Positions 42,660 through 56,713 of a stretch of DNA of 64,000 bases are shown here, piece by piece. The translations under genes and the position numbers were made by a program. The notes below the pieces were generated by a model. It made no database searches and was not told the DNA's origin. It saw only the letters and a list, made by a program, of their open reading frames with translations. This DNA is from Candidatus Uhrbacteria bacterium (GTDB taxonomy: Bacteria > Patescibacteriota > Patescibacteriia > UBA9934 > UBA10169), in contig JACPJO010000004.1 of the NCBI GenBank assembly GCA_016187485.1, positions 56,306 through 120,305 of the forward strand, written 5' to 3'. The stretch's first letter is position 1; each line of letters starts with the position of its first letter.

Positions 42660-43925
42660 TTAAACGTCGTATGCGTGAAGAGTCAGCTGCGAATCAACCT
42701 GTTTGATGACATCAATTACCACGGCAACCACGATCAGGATGGATGTGCCTCCAATAACGAGGTTTGCACTTCCCGTAAACTGCTGAATAATGAGCGGGAG
42801 CACGGCCAAGAGCGCCAGGAAGAGAGCGCCAGCAAACAACACGCGATTTACCACCCATCCCAAATACATAGCCGTAGATTGCCCCGGGCGAATGCCAGGA
42901 ATGAAAGCGCCACTCTTTTGAAGGTTCTCCGCTACACGATCAGGATGGAAAATCACCGAGGTATAGAAGTAGGTGAAAGCAAACACGAGCACAAAGTACA
43001 GCGCGCCGTAGACGGTTTGATTATTCACGACTTGTAACAGCCATGTTGCCGTGTCCTTCACCCACTCGGTGCGCGCATTCACCAGAAACTGTCCCACCGT
43101 TGTAGGGAGAAGCAGAATAGAGATTGCAAAAATAATTGGGATCACGCCCGCCATATTGAGCCGCAGCGGCAAATGGCTCGTGGCGGCACCAAGCAAGCGC
43201 GACCCACGGATCTGTCGCGCATGCTGGATAGGAATATTGCGTTGAGCCTCCTGCATCACCACGACGGCGTAGATCGTGACAAGCACCATGAGCACAAACA
43301 GGATCAGTGTGATCAAGCTGTCTTTGGTGTACACACTGAATGTCTGTTGAAGAAACGAGGGAAGCCCGGCGATAATTCCGGCAAAGATGATAATAGACGT
43401 GCCATTGCCTATCCGATATTCAGAAATAAGCTCCCCAAGCCACATCAGGAACACAGTCCCGGCAACCATAGAAAGGAGTGCTAATGCCATCGTCCAGCCC
43501 GACAGACTTGCGACAAGCGCTGGAGCCTGTTGCGACAGGAGTGCTGTGAGTCCGTACGCCTGGATAAAGGCAAGCGGCACGGTGGCCAGACGCGTCCACT
43601 GCATAATGCGCTGGCGTCCACGCTCTTCCTTTTGCATTTCTTCAAGAGACGGCACGACCATTCCGAGAAGCTGGAAGATGATAGACGAGGTGATGTAGGG
43701 AGCGACGCCGAGCGCGACAAGGGAAAAGTTGTCAAGGGTGCCGCCCGAAAAGATGTTCAAAAGCCCGAAGAATTGATTCCCTTCGAGTACTTGTGAAATA
43801 TCGCTCGCGTTCATGCCGGGCACCGGCACGTGCGCGACAAACCGAAACAATACCAACATGCCTCCCACTGCAAGCAGACTCCGGCGGAGAGCAGGGATCC
43901 GAATGACCTGGGTGAGCTTTGACAT
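42660..43925 (-). CDS. secY: Preprotein translocase SecY
   Basis: 10-TM SecY signature ...GGTSILIVVAVVIDVIKQ... Confidence 0.92.
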   Translation of the reverse strand: MSKLTQVIRIPALRRSLLAVGGMLVLFRFVAHVPVPGMNASDISQVLEGNQFFGLLNIFSGGTLDNFSLVALGVAPYITSSIIFQLLGMVVPSLEEMQKEERGRQRIMQWTRLATVPLAFIQAYGLTALLSQQAPALVASLSGWTMALALLSMVAGTVFLMWLGELISEYRIGNGTSIIIFAGIIAGLPSFLQQTFSVYTKDSLITLILFVLMVLVTIYAVVVMQEAQRNIPIQHARQIRGSRLLGAATSHLPLRLNMAGVIPIIFAISILLLPTTVGQFLVNARTEWVKDTATWLLQVVNNQTVYGALYFVLVFAFTYFYTSVIFHPDRVAENLQKSGAFIPGIRPGQSTAMYLGWVVNRVLFAGALFLALLAVLPLIIQQFTGSANLVIGGTSILIVVAVVIDVIKQVDSQLTLHAYDV

Positions 43926-43931
43926 AAGACG

Positions 43932-44366
43932 TTAAACGACTTGGCCGCCCGCGGCTTGTATTTTTTCGCGCGCGCTCGCGGAAACCGAACACCCTTTGAC
44001 CGTGAGGGCTTTCCCAAGTGCTCCCGTGGCAAGAATTTTGACATTCACAGCATTCGCGGGCACAAGTCCTTTTTCCTTGAGCACTTTTGGCGTCACCATC
44101 GCCCCTTCTTGAAATACTTGGGCAAGCTTCGTGAAGTTGACGACAGACGGTTTGGGAGTGAGGCTTCGGAATCCGCGCACTTTCGGCGTCGCCAAAATAA
44201 TGTGGCGCATACCGAGACGCTTAGTACCGCTTACGCCTGAGCGCGCCGTTTGTCCCTTCCCTCCGCGGCCAGAGTACGTCCCCTTAGAGCCAAGACCACG
44301 TCCAACGCGCTTTTTTCCTTTCCGCGCTCCTTTGGCGGGACGAAGGGTATGTAGTTGCAGAGCCAT
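43932..44366 (-). CDS. rplO: 50S ribosomal protein L15
   Basis: LRPAKGARKGKKRVGRGLGSKGTYSGRG. Confidence 0.9.
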   Translation of the reverse strand: MALQLHTLRPAKGARKGKKRVGRGLGSKGTYSGRGGKGQTARSGVSGTKRLGMRHIILATPKVRGFRSLTPKPSVVNFTKLAQVFQEGAMVTPKVLKEKGLVPANAVNVKILATGALGKALTVKGCSVSASAREKIQAAGGQVV

Positions 44367-44367
44367 A

Positions 44368-44982
44368 TTATTTGGTCTGTGTTTTCAATTGTCGCAGTCC
44401 GACAAGCGTCGCACGCGCAATATTCAATTTGTTGCCAGACCCCATGATTTTACTCACCGCATTTGGGACACCGGCCATTTCCAACACGACCCGGACCGCA
44501 CCGCCGGCTTTCAGTCCTGTTCCGGCTGGCGCGGGTTTCAAGAGCACAACCGCTGCGCGATATTTCGCCGACACCGCATGAGGGAACGTTCCTTCCTTAA
44601 GCGGGATCGTAAACACGTTGCGCTTCGCTTGACGATAGGCCTTTTCTACCGACATGGCCACATCCGCTCCTTTTGCTACCCCGACACCGACACGGCCCTT
44701 TTTATCGCCAATCACCAGCGTGGCGCGGAAACGCATGCGCTTTCCGCCAGCGGTCACGCGCGTCACGCGCGAGAGATCTAAAATCTTTTGATCAAATTCA
44801 CGCTGTTCGCGTTCACGTCGGGCACCGCCTGGACCACGACGGCCTCCTCGCCCGCCCCCGGCCCCGCCGCGTCCCGGCATACCTCGGCCGCGACGTTCTC
44901 CGTGCGGCTTTGTGTCTGTTCCTTTTTGTTCTTGTGTCGTCGGTTCCATATTAGAATTTGATTCCTCCGGCGCGCACGGCAT
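44368..44982 (-). CDS. rpsE: 30S ribosomal protein S5, with an Arg/Gly-rich N-terminal extension
   Basis: RVTRVTAGGKRMRFRATLVIGDKKGRVGVGVAKG... Confidence 0.9.
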   Translation of the reverse strand: MPCAPEESNSNMEPTTQEQKGTDTKPHGERRGRGMPGRGGAGGGRGGRRGPGGARREREQREFDQKILDLSRVTRVTAGGKRMRFRATLVIGDKKGRVGVGVAKGADVAMSVEKAYRQAKRNVFTIPLKEGTFPHAVSAKYRAAVVLLKPAPAGTGLKAGGAVRVVLEMAGVPNAVSKIMGSGNKLNIARATLVGLRQLKTQTK

Positions 44983-45313
44983 CCGCCAGAGCCTTCACGC
45001 GTCCATGATAACGATATGCGCCGCGGTCAAACACCGCCGTCGTAATCCCCTTTGCAAGGGCGAGCTTCCCTAGTTCTTCTCCAACCCATACCGCACGTTG
45101 GGTTTTTGTCTTTTTGTCCGTGTGCTTTCGGTCAGAAGCCGCACACAGGGTCTTTCCCGTGTCGTCATTAATCAGCTGCGCTTCAATATATTTAAGCGAA
45201 CGGAACACGCACAGACGCGGGTGTACCGCTGTACCATGCATGGCGGACCGTGTGCGACGCTGCCTAAGCGTGTGGTGCTTTTGCTTCAAAAGTGTAAGAC
45301 GGCGTGTAGTCAT
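44951..45313 (-). CDS. rplR: 50S ribosomal protein L18
   Basis: RLCVFRSLKYIEAQLINDDTGKTLCAAS...GAYRYHGRVKALADAVRAGG. Confidence 0.9.
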   Translation of the reverse strand: MTTRRLTLLKQKHHTLRQRRTRSAMHGTAVHPRLCVFRSLKYIEAQLINDDTGKTLCAASDRKHTDKKTKTQRAVWVGEELGKLALAKGITTAVFDRGAYRYHGRVKALADAVRAGGIKF

Positions 45314-45314
45314 A

Positions 45315-45869
45315 TTATTCGGCTGATTTGGCGGCCTTGCCCGCTTTACGACGGATCACTTCGTCCGTATATTTCATCCCCTTTCCTTTGTACGGTTCCG
45401 GTTTTTTGAGCGAGCGGAGATATGCCGTAAATTGGCCCACTTGTTCCTTGTCGGCTCCCGTTACCGTAATGATACCCTTTTCAACCGTCACGGTTAGACC
45501 TTCCGGGATCGGCACATCCACATCGTGTGAAAAACCAAGCGACAGCTGGATCTTTTTTCCCATCAGGGCCGCTTTGAATCCCACGCCAATCAACTCAAGT
45601 GACTTCGTGTATCCCGTACTGACGCCTGTCACCATGTTGCCGAGAAGCGCGCGGGTCGTCCCCCACAGCGGTGAAAGCTCGTGCGTGTCACCGTTCACCT
45701 CGACCACCAGTGCCTTCCCATTCCCCTCCTCTCCGATTTTCGGCAACATGGAAGCATGAACGTTTCGTGTAAGCGTTCCTTTGGGCCCCTTCACCGTCAC
45801 GTGTGTGCCATCAATCATGACCTCAACACCGGCAGGAAGGAGAATCGGTTTTTTTCCAACACGTGACAT
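45315..45869 (-). CDS. rplF: 50S ribosomal protein L6
   Basis: MSRVGKKPILLPAGVEV... Confidence 0.9.
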   Translation of the reverse strand: MSRVGKKPILLPAGVEVMIDGTHVTVKGPKGTLTRNVHASMLPKIGEEGNGKALVVEVNGDTHELSPLWGTTRALLGNMVTGVSTGYTKSLELIGVGFKAALMGKKIQLSLGFSHDVDVPIPEGLTVTVEKGIITVTGADKEQVGQFTAYLRSLKKPEPYKGKGMKYTDEVIRRKAGKAAKSAE

Positions 45870-45870
45870 A

Positions 45871-46263
45871 TTAGAAGATTTCACAAATCACTTCACCGCC
45901 CAAACGACGGGAGCGCGCTTCTTTATTCGTCATGATACCGCTTGAGGTAGAAACAATCGCAAAGCCAAACCCGGAAAGGACTCGTGGAAGTTCCGTTGCC
46001 TTGCGATACACGCGTGATCCAGGCGTGCTCACGCGGCGCAGAGACCGCAATCGCGGTTCCCCATCTTCGTATGCAAGCGTAAGAACAATCGAGCGTCCGA
46101 TGCCTTCTCCCACGACGTCCGCTTTCTTCACAAACCCTTCGGCGGCAAGAATTTTGGCAATTGCCCACTTCACATTGGAGTAGGGAACCGCCACCTCGGT
46201 TTTGTGAACCGCCGAGGCGTTGCGCAAGCGCGTCAACATGTCTGAAATTGGGTCGGTGATCAT
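45871..46263 (-). CDS. rpsH: 30S ribosomal protein S8
   Basis: MITDPISDMLTRLRNA... Confidence 0.9.
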   Translation of the reverse strand: MITDPISDMLTRLRNASAVHKTEVAVPYSNVKWAIAKILAAEGFVKKADVVGEGIGRSIVLTLAYEDGEPRLRSLRRVSTPGSRVYRKATELPRVLSGFGFAIVSTSSGIMTNKEARSRRLGGEVICEIF

Positions 46264-46265
46264 AT

Positions 46266-46451
46266 TTACCAGCTCGATTTTTTGAGGCCCGGGATCATTC
46301 CCGTGTTCGCTAATTCACGGAAGCAAATACGGCACAGGCGGAAGTCGCGCATGAATCCGCGAATACGTCCGCACCGCCAGCAACGGTGAATCTTGCGTGT
46401 GGAGAACTTGGGTTTTTTGTTCGCTTTCGCGACACGTGCTTTCGTAGCCAT
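46266..46451 (-). CDS. rpsZ: 30S ribosomal protein S14 type Z (zinc-binding)
   Basis: 61 aa with CxxC...CxxC: [27 protein letters not shown]. Confidence 0.9.
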
Positions 46452-46454
46452 AGA

Positions 46455-47012
46455 TTAGGTGCGTTGGAAGGGGAATCCGAGAGCGCGCAAGAGTTTGACG
46501 CCCGCGTCATGCGTCTGCGCATCCGTCGTAATCGTGACTTGCAGGCCGTGCAGACTTTCAATCTCGTCAGACTTAATTTCCGGAAAAGCCGTGTGCTCGC
46601 GGAATCCGTACGAGAAGTTGCCGTGCGCATCCACACAGGAAAGCGGGATACCGCGGAAATCACGCACGCGGGGGAACGTCACCTCAACCAACTTATCCAG
46701 AAAATCCCACATCCGGCCGCCGCGAAGCGTTACCACCATCCCTACCACCATCCCCTCGCGGATTTTGAATCCAGCAATGGATTGGCGCGCAAGTGTTTTC
46801 ACCGGCTTCTGTCCCGTCACGCGAAGAAGGGTCTGCTCCACCACCTCCGCGATTTTCGAATCCTTACCGCTCTTTGCGTTGAGCCCCACATTCACCGTCA
46901 CCTTTGAAACAGACGGCACTTGGTGTGTATTCGAAAGCGCGAGCTCTTTTTGGAGCGCAGACTTCACCGTCTTCGTATAGAGTTCTTTCAGGCGTGTCAT
47001 ATTACGCAACAT
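46455..47012 (-). CDS. rplE: 50S ribosomal protein L5
   Basis: MTRLKELYTKTVKSALQKEL... Confidence 0.9.
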   Translation of the reverse strand: MLRNMTRLKELYTKTVKSALQKELALSNTHQVPSVSKVTVNVGLNAKSGKDSKIAEVVEQTLLRVTGQKPVKTLARQSIAGFKIREGMVVGMVVTLRGGRMWDFLDKLVEVTFPRVRDFRGIPLSCVDAHGNFSYGFREHTAFPEIKSDEIESLHGLQVTITTDAQTHDAGVKLLRALGFPFQRT

Positions 47013-47313
47013 CTTGTGTTTTTCCGGCTTTCCGCAGAACGCGCACCTTCACCGGTTTTCCGTCTTTTTGGATAAAACGGTAGCCCACACGGACCCCCTC
47101 GCCCTTAAGTTGGAGAGCGGAGAGCGCGAGCGGGGCGGGGAATTCGACAATTTGGCCGCGTACGCCTTTGCGATTGCGCAGGTGACGCTTGCGGATGTTA
47201 ATGCCTTCCACCACCGCACGACCAAGCTTGGGAAAGACTTGCAAAATCTTTCCTTCCTTCCCCTTATCTTTGCCGCTTCGTACGCGGACCATGTCGCCCG
47301 TTTTCAGTTTCAT
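47002..47313 (-). CDS. rplX: 50S ribosomal protein L24
   Basis: MKLKTGDMVRVRSGKDKGKEGKIL. ATG at 47313. The track ORF extends further upstream. Confidence 0.88.
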   Translation of the reverse strand: MKLKTGDMVRVRSGKDKGKEGKILQVFPKLGRAVVEGINIRKRHLRNRKGVRGQIVEFPAPLALSALQLKGEGVRVGYRFIQKDGKPVKVRVLRKAGKTQDVA

Positions 47314-47314
47314 A

Positions 47315-47686
47315 TTAGAGAACTTCGGGAGCAAGAGAAAGAATTTTCGTAAACCCGCCAGCGCGGAGTTCGCGGGCCACGGGGCCGAAAATGCGCGTAC
47401 CCTTTGGCTCCTTTGTCTTTTTATCGACAACCACCGCCGCATTTTCATCAAAGCGAATATAGGTCCCGTCCGGACGGCGCACTTCTTTGCGTGAACGCAC
47501 CAGCACGGCGTGCACGACATCGCTTTTCTTTACGAGTCCACGCGGAGCGGCATCTTTTACCACACACGTCATGATCTCCCCCAAACGGCTGTAATGTTTT
47601 TTGTACCCGCCAAGAACACGAATCACTTGCAATCTCTTGGCTCCGGAATTGTCTGCCACGGCAAGCATGGCGCGATGTTGAACCAT
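47315..47686 (-). CDS. rplN: 50S ribosomal protein L14
   Basis: [27 protein letters not shown]. Confidence 0.9.
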
Positions 47687-47687
47687 A

Positions 47688-47945
47688 TTAGGATTTCGTC
47701 ACTTTTTCCACAACGCGCCAGCGCTTCGTACGCGACATGGGCCGACACGTTTCAAAGAGCACCACATCCCCCACGGCAAAGACACCCGCTTCGTTGTGAA
47801 CAGCGTAGCGTTTCTGACGCTTCATGCGCTTGCCATACTTGGGATGCACAAGTGTGCGTTCCACCACAACAATAAGCGTCTTGGCAGGAGCTACCGAAGC
47901 TACTGTACCGGTCATGCGGCGTGTGATTGGGGAAGAGTTGGTCAT
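47688..47945 (-). CDS. rpsQ: 30S ribosomal protein S17
   Basis: [31 protein letters not shown]. Confidence 0.9.
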
Positions 47946-48127
47946 ACGTTATGGGTGCGAAGAGCTGTTTCCAGTTGCGCAATCTCCTTTTTAAGCGCGC
48001 GCATTTCGCGCACGTCTTTGCGCTGTCCGACCGCGCATTCATAGCGCATCGCGGCATGCGCGTTGCGCGCACGGGCGATATGCTCCATGATCTCGGTTTT
48101 GGATTGTGGGATAGTGAGCTTTTTCAT
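47942..48127 (-). CDS. rpmC: 50S ribosomal protein L29
   Basis: 61 aa. Conserved position between rplP and rpsQ. Confidence 0.85.
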   Translation of the reverse strand: MKKLTIPQSKTEIMEHIARARNAHAAMRYECAVGQRKDVREMRALKKEIAQLETALRTHNV

Positions 48128-48130
48128 ACG

Positions 48131-48553
48131 TTACGCGCGAAGCGTTTTCGTCACCACCCGAGCGGTGAGAGGCAGTTTATACGCGGCAAGCGACAGCGCT
48201 TGGCGCGCCACCTCTTCCGTGATGCCGTCCATCTCAAACAGAATAGTGCCTGGGCGCACAATCACCACAAAGTGGTCCACAGCTCCCTTCCCTTTTCCCA
48301 TCGGCATTTCCGAACCTTTTGTGGTAATAGGATGATCGGGAAACACGCGGATCCACACCTTACCTCCGCGTTTGATAGAGCGTGTCATGGCGCGGCGGGC
48401 TGCTTCAATCTGGCGCGAGGTCACAAAGGATTCGCTGGTTGCCTTAAGACCGAAGGAACCAAAAGCCAGACGCGTCTTTTGTGAAGCCATGCGCTTCCCA
48501 AGACCGCGTCCTTTCTGCCACTTTCGATGTTTGACTTTCTTTGGCATCAACAT
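48131..48553 (-). CDS. rplP: 50S ribosomal protein L16
   Basis: [16 protein letters not shown]. Confidence 0.9.
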
Positions 48554-48555
48554 AC

Positions 48556-49218
48556 TTAGGTGGTTTTCTCTTCGGGTTTCCGATCAAAGACTTCCCCACG
48601 ATAAATCCACACACGCACCCCGATCGTTCCAAAAATGGTAAAGGCGGGCACGTGGGCAAAATCAATATCGGCGCGGAGATTCTGCAGAGGCACTTTTCCG
48701 CTTGTAAGTTTTTCGCGGCGCGCAATTTCCGCACCATTCAACCGGCCCGACACAATAATCTTGACTCCTTCGGCGCCGGCTTTCATGACACGATCAATGG
48801 CTCCCTTCATGCACGTGCGAAACGGCATGCGGCGTTCAAGTTCGGTGGCAATCTGCTGCCCCACGATACGCGCAGAAAGCATGGGACGAGTAACTTCCTT
48901 CACGTTCAGCGCAAGGTGTATGCGTTTGCCGGGAAAGAGGGCGCGCATAAGCTTCTTGCGCAGATCCTCGATACCTGCTCCCGCACGACCAATAATAAAC
49001 CCGGGTTTCGCGGCCACAATCGTGACATGGATCTGTTGAAGAGAGCGTTCAATCCGAATGTGATCTACCCCAGCCTCTTTCAAGTTCTTTTCCAAGAACG
49101 CGCGAATGTTATGATCTTCCTGCAAAAGGCGCGGGAATTCTTTTTTCGAAAACCACAAGGAGTCCCATGTGCGAATCGTGGAGAGGCGGAAAGCTTTTGG
49201 ATGAACTTTTGTTCCCAT
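48556..49218 (-). CDS. rpsC: 30S ribosomal protein S3
   Basis: [23 protein letters not shown]. Confidence 0.9.
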
Positions 49219-49223
49219 AGGAT

Positions 49224-49568
49224 TTAGTGTTTTGCAGGGCGTTCGCCAAGCACAAGAGTAATGTGACTTGTACGCTTGCGGATTGGTGCCGCCCGACCTT
49301 GCGCCCGTGGGCGGTAGCGGTATAACACCGGGCCGCCGTCTACACGCAAAGAGATAATCGAAAGCCCCTCGCCAGAATGCTGAAAGTTGTTCTTTGCATT
49401 GGCCACTGCCGAACGCAAGAGCTTCAGCACAACGGAAGCTGCCGCTTTGTTGAGAAGCTGGAGCTGACGATCCGCGCGCGCAGTGTTCATGCCCCGCACA
49501 AGCCCCGTCACAAGACGGACCTTTCGCGGAGACATGCGTACGCTGTTGGCTTTTGCAAAAAATTCCAT
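49224..49568 (-). CDS. rplV: 50S ribosomal protein L22
   Basis: MEFFAKANSVRMSPRKVRLVTGLVRG. The track ORF extends to 49775. Confidence 0.88.
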   Translation of the reverse strand: MEFFAKANSVRMSPRKVRLVTGLVRGMNTARADRQLQLLNKAAASVVLKLLRSAVANAKNNFQHSGEGLSIISLRVDGGPVLYRYRPRAQGRAAPIRKRTSHITLVLGERPAKH

Positions 49569-49569
49569 A

Positions 49570-49905
49570 TTATTTCTTTGGAGAAGCGGCAGGGGCCGGC
49601 GCGGCGGCAGCTGCAGCGCCCTCTGCTCCCTCTTCGATCGCCTTCTGCATCTTTCCTCCGTGGCGCACGAACTTACGTGTCGGAGAAAACTCCCCCAACC
49701 GGTGTCCCACCATATTCTCCACGACCCGCACAGGAATATGGTCTTTGCCGTTGTGCACACCAATCGTGAAACCAACCATTTCAGGCGTTACCATACTTGC
49801 TCGCGACCATGTCTTTATCACCGTTTTATCGCCGGGTTTCAATGCCTGAACACGCGCAAGCAGTTTTGCGTCTACAAAGGGTCCTTTTTTAAGCGATCGT
49901 GACAT
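49570..49905 (-). CDS. rpsS: 30S ribosomal protein S19, with an Ala/Pro-rich C-terminal tail
   Basis: [16 protein letters not shown]... Confidence 0.9.
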
Positions 49906-49907
49906 AG

Positions 49908-50747
49908 TTAGCGCTTTGCCGTTTTACGGCGAGACAAGATAAAGATATCTGAGGACTTTTTCCGACGCGTCTTCACACCCAATGCCGGTTTGCCCGTTGG
50001 GGTCTTTGGATGTTTCAGACCAATGGAGTTGCGGCCTTCTCCTCCTCCGTGTGGGTGATCAACCGGGTTCATGGCTTTTCCACGCACCGTCGGACGGATG
50101 CCGCGGTGGCGCATGCGCCCTGCCTTTCCCCAGCGAATCAAACGATAGTCCGGATTGGACACTGCGCCCACTGTGGCCATGCACCCCTTCGAGAGCAGGC
50201 GTACCTCACCGGACTGAAGACGTACGGTTGCCATCTCTCCTTCCACTGCCACCACTTGCGCCGATGTGCCTGCAGAACGCACCATGCGCCCTCCCTGTCC
50301 GGGAGAGAGTTCTATATCATGAATGGGCATACCCACCGGAATGACGGAGAGGGGGAAACGATTCCCCTCGACAATTTCGCCGCGCTCTTTGGAAGCGACG
50401 ATCATCGCGCCAACCCGTGCGTGCTCGGGAGCAATGCTGTAGCGTTTCTCACCATCACGATAGATAAGCAACATCAAACGCGCACCACGGTTCGGATCAT
50501 ATTCAATCGCGGCAATACGCGCGGGCACGTTAAACTTCTCGCGCTTGTAGTCTACGTCGCGCAAGAATCGCGCTTCCCCACCTCCGCGATGGCGTACCGT
50601 AATGCGCCCGTGGTTTGCACGCCCCGCATGCTGTTTACGCACGCGCAGAAGCGACTTCTCTGGTTCGAATTTCGTCAGGTCGGCAAAAGCATCTACCGAA
50701 GAGATGCGGCGGCCGGCACTGGTTGGTTTGTAGCGTTTGACGGGCAT
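49908..50747 (-). CDS. rplB: 50S ribosomal protein L2
   Basis: [14 protein letters not shown]...[16 protein letters not shown]. Confidence 0.92.
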
Positions 50748-50755
50748 AGGAAAAA

Positions 50756-51133
50756 TTACACGCCTTCGTAGACATCAATACGTGATCCGTGAGGAAGCGT
50801 CACGAGCGCCTTTTTACGCGCGCGCGTCGTGCCAAAGGAGCGGCCAAAACGGACTTGCCGGGGAACAACACGCGCGATGTGCACCGAAACGGGGCGGATG
50901 CCGTAGAGGGCAAAGATTGCTTTTCCAATTTCCACGCGTGTAGCACTCTTTGCGACCTCGAACACATACGTTCCCGTGGACGCAAGCCGTGAAGCCTTTT
51001 CGCTCACCCAGGGACGCCGAATAATCACGGTAGCCGCTGCCTTCAAGACATCAGAAGCCGGCGCGCGCTTTTCTGCACGTGGTGGCGTTTCCTTTTTTTC
51101 TTTTCGGCGATTAAGAAGCCCCATAGGATGCAA
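50756..51133 (-). CDS. rplW: 50S ribosomal protein L23, with an N-terminal basic extension
   Basis: VIIRRPWVSEKASRLASTGTYVFEVAKSATRVEIGKAIFALYGIRPVSV. Confidence 0.85.
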   Translation of the reverse strand: MHPMGLLNRRKEKKETPPRAEKRAPASDVLKAAATVIIRRPWVSEKASRLASTGTYVFEVAKSATRVEIGKAIFALYGIRPVSVHIARVVPRQVRFGRSFGTTRARKKALVTLPHGSRIDVYEGV

Positions 51134-51755
51134 AAAGTGTCTTCATGGTTTCGAGTGCAGAAGAAGACGTGACGAGGCGGCCGGCCTTCAAGACTTCCTC
51201 CACGTTAAGCGCGTTCGCCGGAATCACTTCCACGCCAGAGAGGTTACGCGCCGCGCGTGACACAAGACGATTCTTGGGCTCCACGACCAGAAGCGTGCGG
51301 CGACCTGCCTGTGGAAGCACGGCAAGCATATTGGACACCTGGCGGGTTTTTCCTTCGGGAAATTCCAGAGAATCTACCGCCACGAGCCGTTCAGTCGAGA
51401 GCAGATCCGAAAGAGCCATCGCGAGTGCCTTCTGACGCAACTTGCGGTTTACCTTCACATCAAAAACACGGGTTTTGCGCGGGCCAAAAACTACGCCACC
51501 GCCCTTCCACTGCGGGGAACGGATGGAGCCCTGGCGTGCGCGACCGGTTCCTTTTTGCTTCCACGGCTTTCTCCCACCCCCGCGCACTTCGCCGCGTGTT
51601 TTCGTGTGTGCAAGCACCGCACGGCGGTTTGTCTGTTGCGCTGTCACGACTTCATAGAGCACGTTGGGATCAGCAGGCACGCTAAAAAGTTTTGCGGGAA
51701 GCTCTAGCGTTCCAACGGTCTCACCTTTTTGATTGTAGAGAGAAGTCGTTGCCAT
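51111..51755 (-). CDS. rplD: 50S ribosomal protein L4
   Basis: Conserved L4 fold and position. Overlaps the rplW start by about 20 nt. Confidence 0.9.
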   Translation of the reverse strand: MATTSLYNQKGETVGTLELPAKLFSVPADPNVLYEVVTAQQTNRRAVLAHTKTRGEVRGGGRKPWKQKGTGRARQGSIRSPQWKGGGVVFGPRKTRVFDVKVNRKLRQKALAMALSDLLSTERLVAVDSLEFPEGKTRQVSNMLAVLPQAGRRTLLVVEPKNRLVSRAARNLSGVEVIPANALNVEEVLKAGRLVTSSSALETMKTLFASYGAS

Positions 51756-51756
51756 A

Positions 51757-52383
51757 TTAGTTCCACACAGACCCTGTCACGTTGGCTCGAATAAACAAAA
51801 CGCCGCCTCGTGCTCCGGGAATCGCGCCGCGAATAGCCAGCGTGTTACGCTCGGGGTCAATAGAGACGACTTTCAAGTTTTTCACGGTGACACGCTCATC
51901 CCCCATGTGCCCCGCCATACGCATATCTTTGAACACGCGTTGCGGCCCTTGCGCACCCACGGATCCAGATTTGCGAACTTGGTCTTTGGTACCGTGCGTG
52001 GTGTTGTGCCCGTGAAACCCATGTCGCTTCACTACTCCAGCAAAGCCACGGCCTTTGGATGTTCCCGTAACATCAACGACATCCCCCACGGTAAACTCCC
52101 CGACAGTCCAGATATCACCCGTCTTCACGCCGTCCACAGAAACCACGCGAGCCTCACGCGTGAGACGCACCGGCCCCAATTGTTTCGCGCGAGCTTCTTG
52201 CGGTTTGTTAATCGTGCGCGTCGTTCCAAATCCAATCTGGACCGCATTGTAGCCATCCTTATCTTCCGTGCGAACATCGGTCACGACGCACGGCCCCGCC
52301 TCGATATAGGTGACAGGCACCACAACACCATCGTCTGTGAAGATCTGCGACATGCCCAATTTTTTGCCAATGAGGAATTTCAT
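51757..52383 (-). CDS. rplC: 50S ribosomal protein L3
   Basis: MKFLIGKKLGMSQIFTDDG. Confidence 0.9.
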   Translation of the reverse strand: MKFLIGKKLGMSQIFTDDGVVVPVTYIEAGPCVVTDVRTEDKDGYNAVQIGFGTTRTINKPQEARAKQLGPVRLTREARVVSVDGVKTGDIWTVGEFTVGDVVDVTGTSKGRGFAGVVKRHGFHGHNTTHGTKDQVRKSGSVGAQGPQRVFKDMRMAGHMGDERVTVKNLKVVSIDPERNTLAIRGAIPGARGGVLFIRANVTGSVWN

Positions 52384-52629
52384 ACGGTATAGAAAAACCA
52401 GAAGTTTGGATACGTCCTATGCCGTAGACAAACTTCTAGTTTCCAATACGCGACACACTTACACGTCTGGAGAATGTTGTTTGAATGAAACGTTGAACGT
52501 ATGTACTCTTGGGGGAAGCGCATGAAGGTTATCGCAGGGGATTATCTGACATCGCGCGAACTTTCTTCACGGTTCTCAAGAGTATCTGACTCTCGACCAA
52601 GCCCGTACAAAATTTTTTGTAGGGCGACA
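52384..52629 (-). promoter_or_regulatory. AT-rich 245-nt structured non-coding spacer between rpsJ and rplC. Candidate cis-regulatory RNA (ribosomal-protein leader/attenuator) or small RNA
   Basis: Much lower GC than the flanks. Near-palindrome CCGTACAAAATTTTTTGTAGGG directly 3' of the rpsJ stop. Inverted repeat CAGAAGTTTG...CAAACTTCTAG. Long-range complement TACTCTTG...CAAGAGTA. Confidence 0.4.
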
Positions 52630-52971
52630 CTACATTTTGATCTCTACATCCACCCCGGCAGGAAGATTGAGACTCATAAGCGCGTCCATCGTGCGCTCGG
52701 TGGGACTCAATATATCTACCAGTCGCTTGTGAATACGGATCTCGTACTGCTCACGACTGTCCTTGTGCACAAATGTTGACCGGTTTGTCGTGTATTTCCG
52801 CTTCTCGGTAGGAAGCGGAATAGGACCTACCACCAAAGCATCCGAGCGTTCGGCCGCTTTTATTATGGTTCCCGTCGCCTGATCTATGATCTTATGATCA
52901 TAGGCACGGATCTTGATGCGGATCCGCTGTTTTCCGGCTTCGGCAGACTTTTGATCAACGTCTTTGGACAC
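52630..52971 (-). CDS. rpsJ: 30S ribosomal protein S10
   Basis: [41 protein letters not shown]. Confidence 0.9.
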
Positions 52972-53043
52972 AGAAGAACGATTCCCGTCATCGGCGGGCG
53001 GAGAGAGCGGTTCCCGCTCCCCGTCGCCCGCTGATCACGCAGG

Positions 53044-54237
53044 TTATTTACTTATTTTTACAATGACCCCCGCTCCCACTGTGTGTCCTCCTTCACGAAT
53101 GGCGAAGCGCTGCTTCTCTTCAAGAGCAACCGGGATGATGAGTTTCACTTGGCAGTTCACCGTGTCTCCGGGCATCACCATCTCCGTTCCGGCAGGAAGT
53201 TCAATCTCTCCCGTCACATCGGTCGTACGAATGTAGAACTGCGGCTTATACCCCTTGAAGAATGGCTTGTGGCGTCCCCCTTCCTCTTTCGTGAGGGCGT
53301 AGATCTCGGCCTCAAATTCCGTGTGGGGCGTCACCGAACCAGGCTTCGCAAGCACCATACCACGTTCCACCTCTTCCTTTTTAACACCGCGAAGGAGCAC
53401 GCCGGCGTTATCCCCTGCGCGACCCTCGTCGAGCGTCTTGTTAAACATTTCAATTCCTGTCACGACAGTCTTCATGGTTTCTTCGCGTAGCCCAACCAAT
53501 TCACCTTCCTCACCCACCTTCACGATACCGCGCTCGATGCGGCCCGTCACCACGGTGCCACGACCTTCAATCGAGAAAACATCTTCCACCGGCATGAGGA
53601 ACGGACGATCCGTCTCACGTACAGGCTCGGGGATGTATTCGTCGAGCGTCTTTAAGAGATCAAGAACCGGTTTGGCGGCCGCTTCGTCCGTGGGGTTCTG
53701 AAGCGCCTTCAAAGCGGAGCCGCGGATGATGGGCGTTTCGTCGCCGGGGAATTCGTATTTCTTCAAAAGGTCGCGAATTTCTTCCTCGACCAAATCGATG
53801 AGTTCCGGATCATCCACGGTGTCTACCTTGTTCAAGAACACGACAATGCGCGGCACGCCCACCTGGCGCGCTAGAAGAATGTGCTCACGCGTTTGCGGCA
53901 TGGGACCGTCGGCGGCAGAGACTACCAAAACAGCGCCGTCCATCTGGGCTGCTCCTGTGATCATGTTCTTTACGTAGTCAGCATGTCCGGGACAATCCAC
54001 GTGGGCGTAGTGGCGTGCCGTCGTTTCATACTCCGTATGCGCGGTGGCAATGGTAATTCCACGAGACTTGGACTCTGGAGCTTTGTCCAGATCGTCCACG
54101 CCCTTCTTCTGAGCTATAAGACCATGCGAACTGGCCACGGCAAGGATGGCCGCCGTAAGCGTCGTTTTTCCATGGTCCACGTGTCCAATGGTACCCACGT
54201 TTACGTGCGGTTTTGTTCGTTCAAACGTTCCGGCCAT
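53044..54237 (-). CDS. tuf: Elongation factor Tu
   Basis: [14 protein letters not shown]... Confidence 0.95.
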
Positions 54238-54349
54238 AATTTGGCTTTATTGAGCGACCCCAGAGGAGCGCCAATGATTAAAATTAAGTGAGTTTACAAT
54301 AATGTGGCGCCAGTATAACACAGGTCAGATTCCTTGCAAGAGGCCACCC

Positions 54350-54619
54350 CTATTCTACCGGCTCAAGATAAAACTGGGTTTCGGACTCGAGGTCTGGCGG
54401 GGGAGGCGGGAGAGGAGGTTCCGGCTCCTTCCTTATCTCTGGCTTCGGCGGCTTCTCGGCAGGACGCGGTTGCTCTTTGGGCAGCTCACCTTTTCCATCC
54501 ACGAGCGTCTCGTAGCGTTCGGGACTCAACAGAACAAACGACTCCTCCTCCCCCATGACGATAAGCGGATGGCCTGTTTTTCTTGCAAGAGAGAGCAGGC
54601 GTTTGAGAGAGGCGTCCAT
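54350..54619 (-). CDS. Small hypothetical protein with a Phd/YefM-antitoxin-like N-terminal domain plus a Pro-rich low-complexity tail, between fusA and tuf
   Basis: GHPLIVMGEEESFVLLSPERYETL resembles the Phd/YefM core ([23 protein letters not shown]). Tail PKPEIRKEPEPPLPPPPPDLE. The antisense ORF 54302..54652 is rejected. Confidence 0.45.
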   Translation of the reverse strand: MDASLKRLLSLARKTGHPLIVMGEEESFVLLSPERYETLVDGKGELPKEQPRPAEKPPKPEIRKEPEPPLPPPPPDLESETQFYLEPVE

Positions 54620-54622
54620 AGA

Positions 54623-56713
54623 TTAAGCGCGACGCGCAGTTCCTTGTCGTGATTCGACAATCGTTTGGGCGATATTCGGCGGCACTTCGTCGTAGTGATC
54701 GAACTCCATCGTGTAGGACGCACGGCCTTGTGTGAGCGAGCGCACCGTTGTGGCATAGCCGAACATTTCGGCAAGCGGCACAAATGCGCGAATGACTTTC
54801 GCTTCCATCCGGTCCGACATCTCCTGGATTTGTCCCCGTTTGGAGTTCAAATCTCCCACCACCGTTCCCATAAATTCTTCCGGGGTGATGACTTCCACTT
54901 TCATGACAGGCTCAAGGAGCACGGGCTTGGCACGTTTGGCTGCATCTTGAAAGGCAAGCGAGCCGGCAATCTTAAAGGCTGCTTCAGATGAGTCCACTTC
55001 ATGGTAAGACCCGTCATACAAGTGAATACGAAAGTCCAGCACGGGATACCCAGCTACTACGCCGCGCTCGGCCGCTTCGATAATGCCCTTTTCAATAGGG
55101 TTGATGAACTCTTTGGGAATGACACCGCCCTTGATTTCGTTCAAGAACTCAAATCCTTTTCCCTGGTTGGGCTCCACACGCACGCGCGCATGGCCATACT
55201 GCCCCTTTCCCCCTGTTTGGCGGATAAATTTTCCTTCTCCTTCCGCCTCGAGGCGAATCGTCTCGCGGTACGCCACTTGCGGGCGCCCGACGTCAGCCTC
55301 TACTTTGTACTCGCGCTTCATGCGATCAATAATGATCTCCAAGTGAAGCTCGCCCATTCCTTTAATGATAGTCTGTCCAGATTCTTCATCGGACGCGACG
55401 TGGAATGTCGGGTCTTCTTCCGCAAGTTTTGCAAGCGCCATACCCATTTTTTCCTGATCGGCTTTTGTTTTTGGTTCGATGGCGACAGAAATAACAGGAT
55501 CGGGAAACGTGATGGACTCAAGTACGATGGGGTGATCCGGGTCGCACAGCGTGTTCCCCGTCGTCGTGCCGCGCAATCCCACGGCCGCCGCAATTTCTCC
55601 GGCATACACATCTTGCACTTCCTCACGGTGATTTGCGTGAAGACGCACAATGCGCCCAATCCGTTCTTTGTCCCCAGTGGAGGTATTGTACACGTATGAC
55701 CCCGCCTTCAGGTTGCCGGAATACACGCGGAAGAACACAAGCTTTCCGATGAAAGGGTCCGCGGCAACTTTAAAGGCAAGGGCAGCAAAAGGCTCGCTGT
55801 CACTTGCCTGACGCACTTCTTCTTTTTCGGGATCGTCCGGATGAAATCCTTTGACCGGAGGAATATCAAGCGGTGAGGGCAGATAATAGTTGACGGCATC
55901 AAGCAGCTGTTGAACCCCCTTATTCTTGAGCGCAGAGCCGCAGAGAATCGGAAAGACATCGCGCGCGATGGTTGCCTTACGAAGCGCCAAACGAATCTCG
56001 TCTACCGAAAGCTCCTCGCCCGCGAGGTAGCGCGTCATGAGAGCCTCGTCCGTCTCCACGATCGTCTCCAGAAGTTCGCTCCGATACTTCTGCGCCTGTT
56101 CCTTCAAGTCACTGGGAATATCCTGTTCCTCAATATCTTTTCCCAGATCATCGGTAAACGTGAAAGCACGCATGAGGATAAGATCCACCACACCCTGGAA
56201 ATTGTCCTCAGTGCCGATAGGAAGTTGAATCGGTCGAGCCTTTTTGGTAAGGCGCGCGTGAATGGACGCAACGTCTTTGTAAAAATCCGCACCGGTACGA
56301 TCAAGCTTGTTGATGAAACACACGCGCGGTACAGAGTACTTATCTGCTTGGCGCCACACCGTTTCCGACTGCGATTCCACACCTGCCACTCCGTCAAACA
56401 CGGTAACGCCGCCGTCAAGCACGCGCAGCGACCGCTCCACTTCTACGGTAAAGTCTACGTGACCGGGAGTATCAATAATGTTGTAGCGACACCCTTTCCA
56501 AAAACAGGTTGTTGCGGCAGCCGTGATGGTGATGCCGCGCTCACGTTCCTGTTCCATCCAGTCCATCGTCGCTTCCCCTTCATGCACTTCCCCAATCTTA
56601 TGCTTCTTCCCCGTGTAGAAAAGCACGCGCTCGGTTGTCGTGGTTTTCCCGGCATCAATGTGCGCAATAATGCCGAAGTTACGAGTTTGCTCAAGAGAAT
56701 ATTCGCGTGACAT
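54623..56713 (-). CDS. fusA: Elongation factor G
   Basis: [19 protein letters not shown]... Confidence 0.95.

Follow-up and report, generated by a model that had tools for sequence, protein, structure and literature searches.

A candidate S8-responsive transcription attenuator in the rpsJ-rplC spacer of a Candidatus Uhrbacteria bacterium and other Patescibacteria

The closest described counterparts of the RNA element analyzed here are the S10 leader and the spc operator of Escherichia coli. In the S10 leader, the only characterized attenuator for these genes, termination of transcription is driven by L4 together with NusA (PMC3616713, PMC10931766). The spc operator mimics the S8 site in helix 21 of 16S rRNA and acts by translational repression. 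The E. coli structures have been reported to be confined to the Gammaproteobacteria (PMC3616713), and regulation of S10 and spc outside this group is reported as unknown (PMC10931766). Eckert and Weinberg (2020) described 20 leaders, one of which, L4-Archaeoglobi, is a candidate L4 leader upstream of rplC; it is archaeal, and none was described for the candidate phyla radiation (CPR; Patescibacteria) (PMC7247131). No description of a CPR leader between rpsJ and rplC was found in our literature searches. Here we analyzed a stretch of 64,000 nucleotides (nt) from a Candidatus Uhrbacteria bacterium (contig JACPJO010000004.1), referred to as the window, in which the S10 gene rpsJ and the L3 gene rplC are separated by a non-coding spacer of 246 nt (52384–52629) within an operon on the minus strand. 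We consider it somewhat more probable than an even chance that this spacer is the leader of a fused S10-spc operon and functions as an autoregulatory transcription attenuator, the sensed molecule most likely being free S8. This proposal rests on sequence comparison, and all functional statements made here are computational inferences.

A first-pass annotation of the window had singled out the region as a 245-nt, AT-rich, structured spacer between two genes that are normally adjacent. The spacer is present and non-coding, but one nucleotide longer than stated. Its GC content is below that of the flanking genes, and with values of 0.43–0.46 compared to approximately 0.55–0.59 it is only moderately AT-rich. 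Gene adjacency was examined in 177 loci encoding L3 relatives, obtained from genome and metagenome collections and from contigs with close homologues; 144 of the loci hold both genes. Close spacing is the rule in many phyla, as a spacer of at most 45 nt occurred in 65 of the 144 loci, with 2–45 nt in Proteobacteria, Bacteroidota, Verrucomicrobia, and others. It is not the rule in Patescibacteria, which account for almost all of the 66 loci (of 144) in which rpsJ and rplC lie 120 nt or more apart (median, 214 nt). Long spacers of this kind, typically 120–440 nt in the CPR, are found in Uhr-, Falkow-, Kerfeld-, Magasanik-, Moran-, and Parcubacteria, the relatives closest to the window included. 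The L3 protein of the window is identical to one listed by NCBI under Candidatus Uhrbacteria, and its nearest GTDB genome is an Uhrbacteria metagenome-assembled genome (65% identity in L3). Some Clostridia have a spacer of their own of about 125 nt at this position.

The earlier suggestion that the spacer lacks a convincing open reading frame (ORF) was borne out, since no conserved ORF was found within it: its small ORFs are not kept in relatives, and an ORF of 47 amino acids (aa) that overlaps rplC by ATGA has a weak match in the closest relative only. Folding, an Rfam scan, and alignment with related genomes had been proposed as checks of the RNA itself. The sense RNA of the spacer had a predicted folding energy of −74.9 kcal/mol, compared to −55.6 ± 4.6 kcal/mol for 200 dinucleotide shuffles (z = −4.19, none of the 200 shuffles being as stable), and the antisense strand gave a z of −2.97. 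Rfam 15 returned no family matching the spacer, either at gathering thresholds for the whole window and for 20 related loci or at E≤10 for positions 52300–52720. Applied at gathering thresholds to the S10-spc region of E. coli, Rfam 15 likewise detected no family over the S10 leader or the spc operator. Rfam thus either has no model for these two elements or fails to detect them, and its silence on the spacer is uninformative with regard to both. The alignments, described below, revealed a conserved structure with compensatory changes, and the relatives keep the spacer.

The spacer harbors a conserved 5′ domain of putative protein-binding function (52502–52586, minus strand, as are all elements described below), which was defined by covariance model R1 and by a MAFFT alignment (A1) of the window copy with 12 Uhrbacteria-like relatives, together referred to as type A (n = 13). 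The domain is closed by helix P0, in which UACUCUUG (52584–52577) pairs with CAAGAGUA (52511–52504); this is the long-range pair TACTCTTG/CAAGAGTA (52504–52511/52577–52584) that had already been noticed in the first-pass annotation. Helix P1 (GAA, 52575–52573, with UUC, 52517–52515) and helix P2 (CGUGAAG, 52571–52565, with CUUCAUG, 52527–52521) follow, and the domain ends in helix P3 (UCGCG, 52559–52555, with UGCGA, 52536–52532) and a variable apex. Between P2 and P3 lies an asymmetric internal loop whose nucleotide count is odd (5 + 4), composed of AAAGU (52560–52564) on the 5′ strand and UAAC (52528–52531) on the 3′ strand. Type A leaders follow the pattern ...GUGAAG-AAAGU-UCGC...GCGA-UAAC-CUUCAU..., in which AAAG of the first loop strand and AAC of the second are invariant. 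In alignment A1, 94.4% of the cells were paired, compared to 31–49% when the partners were slid by 1–3 columns, and five pairs displayed compensatory changes.

A second set of 24 spacers from Parcubacteria, Falkowbacteria, and others (type B) carries a closely related loop, with the strands AAGU and AAC, in permuted order, Y-(U)AAC-[hairpin]-AAGU-G-Y′. Here, 94.1% of the cells were paired as opposed to 41–55% in the slid controls, and 10 of 11 pairs displayed compensatory changes, so that type B is much richer in covariation than type A. A pair within the type B loop, the counterpart of U598-A640 in helix 21, covaries from A-U to U-A. Searched against 580 kb of loci plus the window, the covariance models of both types, R1 and R2, matched only the rpsJ-rplC spacer and only its sense strand, the sequences recovered being solely those used for training and their duplicates, the window copy among them. 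Within the 64-kb window, R1 had one match (52502–52586; 72.4 bits, with the window copy being part of the training set). The occurrence of the same loop in both orientations would fit a local motif recognized by a protein better than a folded aptamer.

Downstream of the 5′ domain follows a loosely conserved linker (52442–52501) containing a CAUUCAAACAAC element and a small hairpin, and then an intrinsic-terminator-like hairpin, termed hairpin T (52391–52441; −20.5 kcal/mol). The hairpin lies about 90 nt downstream of the internal loop. The stem of hairpin T, AACUAGAAGUUUG...CAAACUUCUGGUU (52441–52396), consists of 13 bp plus an inner 4 bp. A U-tract, UUUUUCU (52397–52391), begins on the last two residues of the stem and leaves UUUCU behind it, so that the layout predicted for the transcribed strand, a stable stem-loop with a U-run directly behind it, is that of an intrinsic terminator; 12 nt separate the end of the hairpin from the rplC start codon. 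The inverted repeat near rplC reported earlier (CAGAAGTTTG...CAAACTTCTAG) exists and is part of a longer repeat with arms of 20 nt, which are 85% complementary and 8 nt apart (52395–52414/52423–52442). In 15 type A relatives, RNAalifold predicted 21 pairs for the terminator, 13 of them with compensatory changes, and an invariant UUUU tract. A hairpin with a U-run upstream of rplC is present in nearly all CPR spacers. Taken together, the CPR-wide family, the covariation of both the 5′ domain and the terminator, and the hairpin with its U-tract argue for the earlier proposal that the spacer is a structured autoregulatory leader or attenuator.

We then considered from where the leader is transcribed. 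Sigma-70-like promoters (at least 10 of 12 matches) were found in 14 of 71 long spacers, in lineages other than that of the window, compared to 5.4 ± 2.1 in shuffled sequences. They are located upstream of the terminator, mostly just after the rpsJ stop codon and ahead of the 5′ domain, and in these lineages the hairpin thus resides inside a 5′ leader. The short interval from the hairpin to rplC (9–40 nt in most loci) gave no promoter-like match, and rplC transcription therefore most likely reads through the hairpin. The spacer of the window is without a promoter-like site; hence, the leader is most likely reached here by continuation of the tuf-rpsJ message. The promoter data also bear on the earlier idea of a small RNA embedded between rpsJ and rplC. 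Where a promoter follows rpsJ, as in some lineages, termination at the hairpin would release an RNA of approximately 150–250 nt. However, there is no promoter in the spacer of this genome, and where rplC depends on read-through, the RNA is a leader by definition. We therefore regard a separate small RNA gene as highly improbable.

The element might alternatively be constitutive, that is, an intercistronic partial terminator or a stability or processing signal which sets a fixed step in expression between the abundant tuf-rpsJ message and the ribosomal genes downstream, the 5′ domain being merely structural. Such a role would agree with the position of the element inside a polycistronic message in the window and with the result that neither an antiterminator nor a switch could be detected. 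A fixed terminator, however, leaves the features of the 5′ domain unexplained, namely the invariant loop, the covarying helices, conservation over phylum-level distances, and the two orientations. In addition, the element is not intercistronic in the several lineages that have a dedicated promoter upstream of all of it. We consider a constitutive role distinctly unlikely. Still less probable is control of the terminator by a small-molecule riboswitch or another non-protein sensor. Transcriptional riboswitches share the general architecture of a terminator preceded by a conserved 5′ domain, and the element is unannotated in Rfam. However, the conserved part is a helix with a small internal loop, whose orientation is permuted and whose apical and basal extensions vary. 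Such properties are typical of protein sites rather than ligand pockets, and the genes downstream are all ribosomal.

The identity of the proposed ligand was suggested by the internal loop. In 16S rRNA, the S8 site of helix 21 is a helix with an asymmetric internal loop of seven conserved nucleotides, which is characterized by the base triples (G597-C643)-U641 and A595-(A596-U644) and by an invariant A642 that stacks on the Ser-Thr-Ser peptide of S8 (PMC4176348). The loop is formed in E. coli by an AAG strand, U594-AAGU-C599, and an AC strand, G639-AUACU-G645 (numbering checked on rrsH). The corresponding strands of the validated spc operator of E. coli are GCAAGUCCC (+78 to +86) and GCGAAACUG (+4 to +12), with AAGU facing AAAC(U). 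Almost the same core occurs in leaders of Moranbacteria (type M), with CGUU-AAAGU-CCC as the AAG strand and GGG-AUACU-GAACG as the AC strand: the second strand includes GAUACUG, which is identical to E. coli 639–645, and the first (UAAAGUC) has one extra A. In the window, AAAGU corresponds to A595-A596-G597(-U598), and UAAC corresponds to (U/A)641-A642-C643 and to A8-A9-C10 of the spc operator; in type B leaders, AAGU faces AAC. The G and C equivalent to G597-C643 are invariant in the 13 type A leaders, and in type B (n = 24) the C is invariant and the G is present in at least 90%. The adenine 5′ of this C, equivalent to A642, is invariant in type A and present in at least 90% of type B, the pairing being deduced from position. 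For position 641, the window has an A available, as two A residues precede the C, and the Moranbacteria leaders have the canonical U. The A596-U644 feature is found in the Moranbacteria leaders (AUACU) and partly in type B (AAC-U).

We also searched with a helix 21 pattern in which A596-G597-U598, A640, and A642-C643-U644 were fixed, positions 595 and 641 were free, and three pairs of the Y helix and four of the X helix were required. The pattern had a single site in the E. coli rrn operon, which is helix 21 itself, and was found in 6 of the leaders; unrelated matches numbered about 8 in 1.6 Mb. Outside the leader, no helix 21-like site was detected in the window. A Magasanikbacteria contig (L179) that carries both a leader and a 16S gene allowed a direct comparison. 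The helix 21 core of this 16S gene is canonical (UAAGU/GAUACUG). As in E. coli, the rRNA site is thus normal and its copy in the leader imperfect, and on the same grounds we rejected the idea that the leader tracks the organism's own 16S rRNA. The protein side is conserved as well: S8 of the window retains the Ser-Thr-Ser tripeptide that contacts A642 by stacking, together with a Tyr near position 86 (residue roles from PMC4176348). Its gene, rpsH (45871–46263; Pfam Ribosomal_S8, 1.5e-42), is located approximately 6 kb downstream of the leader inside the cluster from rplC to secY that would be regulated, as is also the case in L179.

Compared with the spc operator, the shared element is a helix with a small asymmetric internal loop, in which an AAG(U) strand faces an A-A-C strand. 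Both GCGAAACUG/GCAAGUCCC of the spc operator and GAAGAAAGUUCGC/GCGAUAACCUUC of the window contain the G-C pair and the unpaired A 5′ of the C. The spc operator has an A at position 641, for which the loop of the window has an A available, and its orientation is that of type B. In both systems rpsH lies within the unit that is, or would be, regulated, and the mRNA site resembles an imperfect copy of the rRNA site. The loops of the window and of type B thus appear to be variants of the same theme as the spc operator. The two sites differ in that the loop of the window has no equivalent of A596-U644, and also in their place, the spc operator being situated at the start of rplE inside spc, whereas the CPR site precedes rplC and heads a fused S10-spc cluster. 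They further differ in their output, as the CPR site would be coupled to an intrinsic-terminator-like hairpin in place of translational repression. The site of the window is 146 nt away from the rplC AUG, a distance at which binding is unlikely to occlude the ribosome directly.

Several observations weigh against an S8-sensing attenuator. The A595-(A596-U644) triple has no counterpart in the window: the adenines are invariant, but the residue after AAC, at the place of U644, is a C that pairs with the G closing P2. At the position of U598-A640, a U is opposite a U, and relatives have variable non-Watson-Crick combinations; a conserved U-A pair is present one step further in. The loop of the window has one extra residue per strand compared to helix 21, and type B leaders, with only one A before the C, are without an equivalent of 641. 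Model R3, built on the Moranbacteria mimics and dominated by lineage-specific flanks, was run on the window and on the rrn operon of E. coli; it gave no meaningful match, with at most 3.8 bits for E. coli helix 21 and no score for the leader of the window. As a consequence, the link to S8 is based on a core of about 13 nt and a custom pattern; it is a short core with a shared position and architecture and not a match at the level of a model. With regard to the terminator, hairpin T was missed by a simple terminator scan, owing to its A/U-rich stem and long loop. An antiterminator was not supported either. Although co-transcriptional folds included an alternative pairing of 52477–52502 with the 5′ half and loop of the terminator, the best duplexes were no better than shuffles in two designs: the upstream 90 nt against the terminator 5′ half (37 leaders) and the 3′ strand of the 5′ domain against the 5′ arm of the terminator (13 leaders of type A) gave a mean z of −0.4 each, with +1.5 and −0.45, respectively, for the window. 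Finally, the E. coli S10 leader sets a precedent for L4, and not S8, as the protein that governs termination upstream of these genes.

The last point is the reason to keep L4 as an alternative ligand. The leader and attenuator would be the same, and the sensed protein would be L4, L3, or another primary binder of rRNA encoded in the cluster; an attenuator binding L3 or L4 had also been the example given in the first-pass annotation. This would be in line with rplC and rplD being the first genes downstream of the leader and with the two defining positions at which the loop of the window departs from the canonical S8 site. However, no resemblance to an L4 or L3 site in rRNA could be substantiated, and the S8 core is copied almost exactly in sister lineages. 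Three leads in 23S rRNA (compared with E. coli rrlH) were dropped: H19-H20, the L4 site, had a similarity to CGCGCGAU of the window that is not kept in relatives; H66, the L2 site, had a different topology; and the central loop of the peptidyl transferase center with H74 was discarded as these leads failed on unconserved residues or different topology. An exhaustive rRNA scan for AAG/AC loops had no discriminating power. Specific support for L3 or L4 is thus lacking, the loop matching the S8 site of helix 21 and the spc operator instead, and we consider a ligand other than S8 unlikely.

If S8 is the ligand, the following sequence of events can be proposed. Whenever S8 synthesis outpaces uptake of the protein by 16S rRNA, S8 would bind to the 5′ domain of the leader, RNA polymerase would then terminate more often at hairpin T, and transcription of the approximately 22 genes from rplC through secY, including rpsH, would decrease. 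The gene for S10 (NusE), rpsJ, would be exempt from this feedback by its location upstream of the leader. Binding might be coupled to termination by a weak alternative pairing or by a pausing or NusA-type effect, as with L4 in E. coli. Some subgroups of Parcubacteria show conserved complementarity to the terminator loop. Hairpin T may in addition damp rplC translation in read-through transcripts, as it is only 12 nt away from the AUG and a Shine-Dalgarno sequence is absent. The 23 genes between and including fusA and secY (43925–56713, minus strand) all lack a GGAG, GAGG, or AGGA motif at the usual position, and the genome appears to translate without Shine-Dalgarno sequences. Many of the starts in this region carry an A/U-rich context, ...cUAAnAUG.

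The CPR leader also shares features with the S10 leader of E. coli. Both are structured and contain a hairpin of the Rho-independent terminator type, and control extends into rplC-rplD-...-rpsQ in E. coli and, as proposed here, in the CPR. The S10 leader responds to a ribosomal protein encoded downstream and does not require a classical antiterminator either. In contrast, the S10 leader is located upstream of rpsJ, whereas the CPR leader is located downstream of it and excludes S10. The CPR loop points to S8 and not to L4, and the proposed unit extends through spc to secY, unlike that of the E. coli S10 operon. No similarity in sequence or structure was found to the HD and HE hairpins recognized by L4, and no model-based comparison was possible. 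By analogy, the CPR leader would therefore be spc operator-like in its ligand logic and S10 leader-like in its terminator, and a member of neither group. The S10-Clostridia leader (RF03136) is likewise a candidate from comparative genomics; it differs in its position upstream of rpsJ, its occurrence in Clostridia, and its unrelated consensus.

A more general reading would be that, in Patescibacteria, a single S8-sensing attenuator after rpsJ governs the whole S10-spc super-operon with S10/NusE left outside, and that the S8 mimic exists in at least three forms (canonical, without the 641 base, and with one additional residue per strand) and in both orientations, the operator having been repeatedly remodelled or re-invented. 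We rate this generalization slightly below an even chance. If true, it would be the first S8 operator outside the Gammaproteobacteria and the first to work via termination rather than translation, and it would represent the rewiring of a ribosomal protein to a new operon position and mechanism with the logic of rRNA mimicry kept. For a large and uncultivated part of the bacterial tree, the leader offers a concrete and testable answer consisting of an 85-nt RNA, a candidate protein, and a terminator. Annotation of the motif would, furthermore, correct L3 gene calls of 262–301 aa that run into the leader. In three loci, L167 (P0002, 262 aa), L172 (P0010, 270 aa), and L179 (P0206, 301 aa), L3 is called 50–100 codons too far upstream, because the leader is by chance free of in-frame stop codons. 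The true start in these relatives aligns with MKFLIGKK.

The near-perfect palindrome that had been noted directly after the rpsJ stop codon is present as a predicted hairpin (CCCUACAAAAAAUUUUGUACGGG, 52602–52624) with the arms CCGTACAAAA and TTTTGTAGGG (52603–52624). It is missing from the spacers of the two closest relatives (L167 and L006), in which just about 20 nt separate the rpsJ stop codon from the 5′ domain. By comparison of these sequences, it is lineage-specific and outside the conserved leader element. It has no U-tail and is thus not a classical terminator, and its single copy in the 64-kb window argues against a repeated element. The hairpin may serve as a 3′ stabilizer of tuf-rpsJ transcripts.

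The genes surrounding the leader are arranged in the order fusA, a small ORF, tuf, rpsJ, spacer, rplC, rplD, rplW, rplB ... secY. Upstream of the leader are fusA (54623–56713), the small ORF (54350–54619), tuf (53044–54237), and rpsJ (52630–52971; Pfam Ribosomal_S10 on the identical gene in locus L001). The small ORF in the gap between fusA and tuf encodes 89 aa with a Pro/Glu-rich C-terminal half; it is also called as a gene in identical Logan contigs, and no Pfam match is on record. Identical contigs are carried by the series SRR12113383–SRR12113431. Downstream are rplC (51757–52383), rplD, which encodes the rival candidate regulator L4 (51111–51755; Pfam Ribosomal_L4 on the identical gene in L001), and further genes up to secY (42660–43925). 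From rplC to secY, the gaps amount to a few nucleotides, forming an uninterrupted S10-spc cluster of approximately 22 genes.

Several minor observations were made on related loci. In Oscillospiraceae (L021–L025, L105/L107), the rpsJ-rplC spacer of about 125 nt is distinct and conserved, with the arrangement GUUGUACCGCGUC-hairpin-GGCAGGUCAUGUU...AACCAAUAACCUU and no Rfam match; the S10-Clostridia leader occurs separately in the same loci, upstream of rpsJ. This spacer may be another unannotated leader. Spacers of Parcubacteria (L096, L098, L099, L101, L103, L112, and L113) contain runs of short ACGAAU/UACGAAU-like repeats, which flank the leader or fall between terminator and rplC and extend these spacers to 300–440 nt. 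Locus L055 differs from L054 by a 78-nt tandem duplication of the 3′ end of rpsJ and the stop region. In Magasanikbacteria (L179, 5720–7252; L010, 1–224), the str region includes a 16S gene, which has fusA-trmD on one side and tuf on the other, lies about 3 kb upstream of rplC, and is apparently unlinked to 23S. Finally, in nine loci (L171, L086, L170, L173, L169, L007, L015, L010, and L013) the 3′ arm of the terminator (UUCUGG/UUCUAG) is complementary to a segment upstream of the AUG (CCAGAA/CUAG). This second pairing covaries from CUGG:CCAG to CUAG:CUAG, with GGU...ACC as a remnant in the window, and the resulting hairpin may reopen the start region in read-through mRNA.

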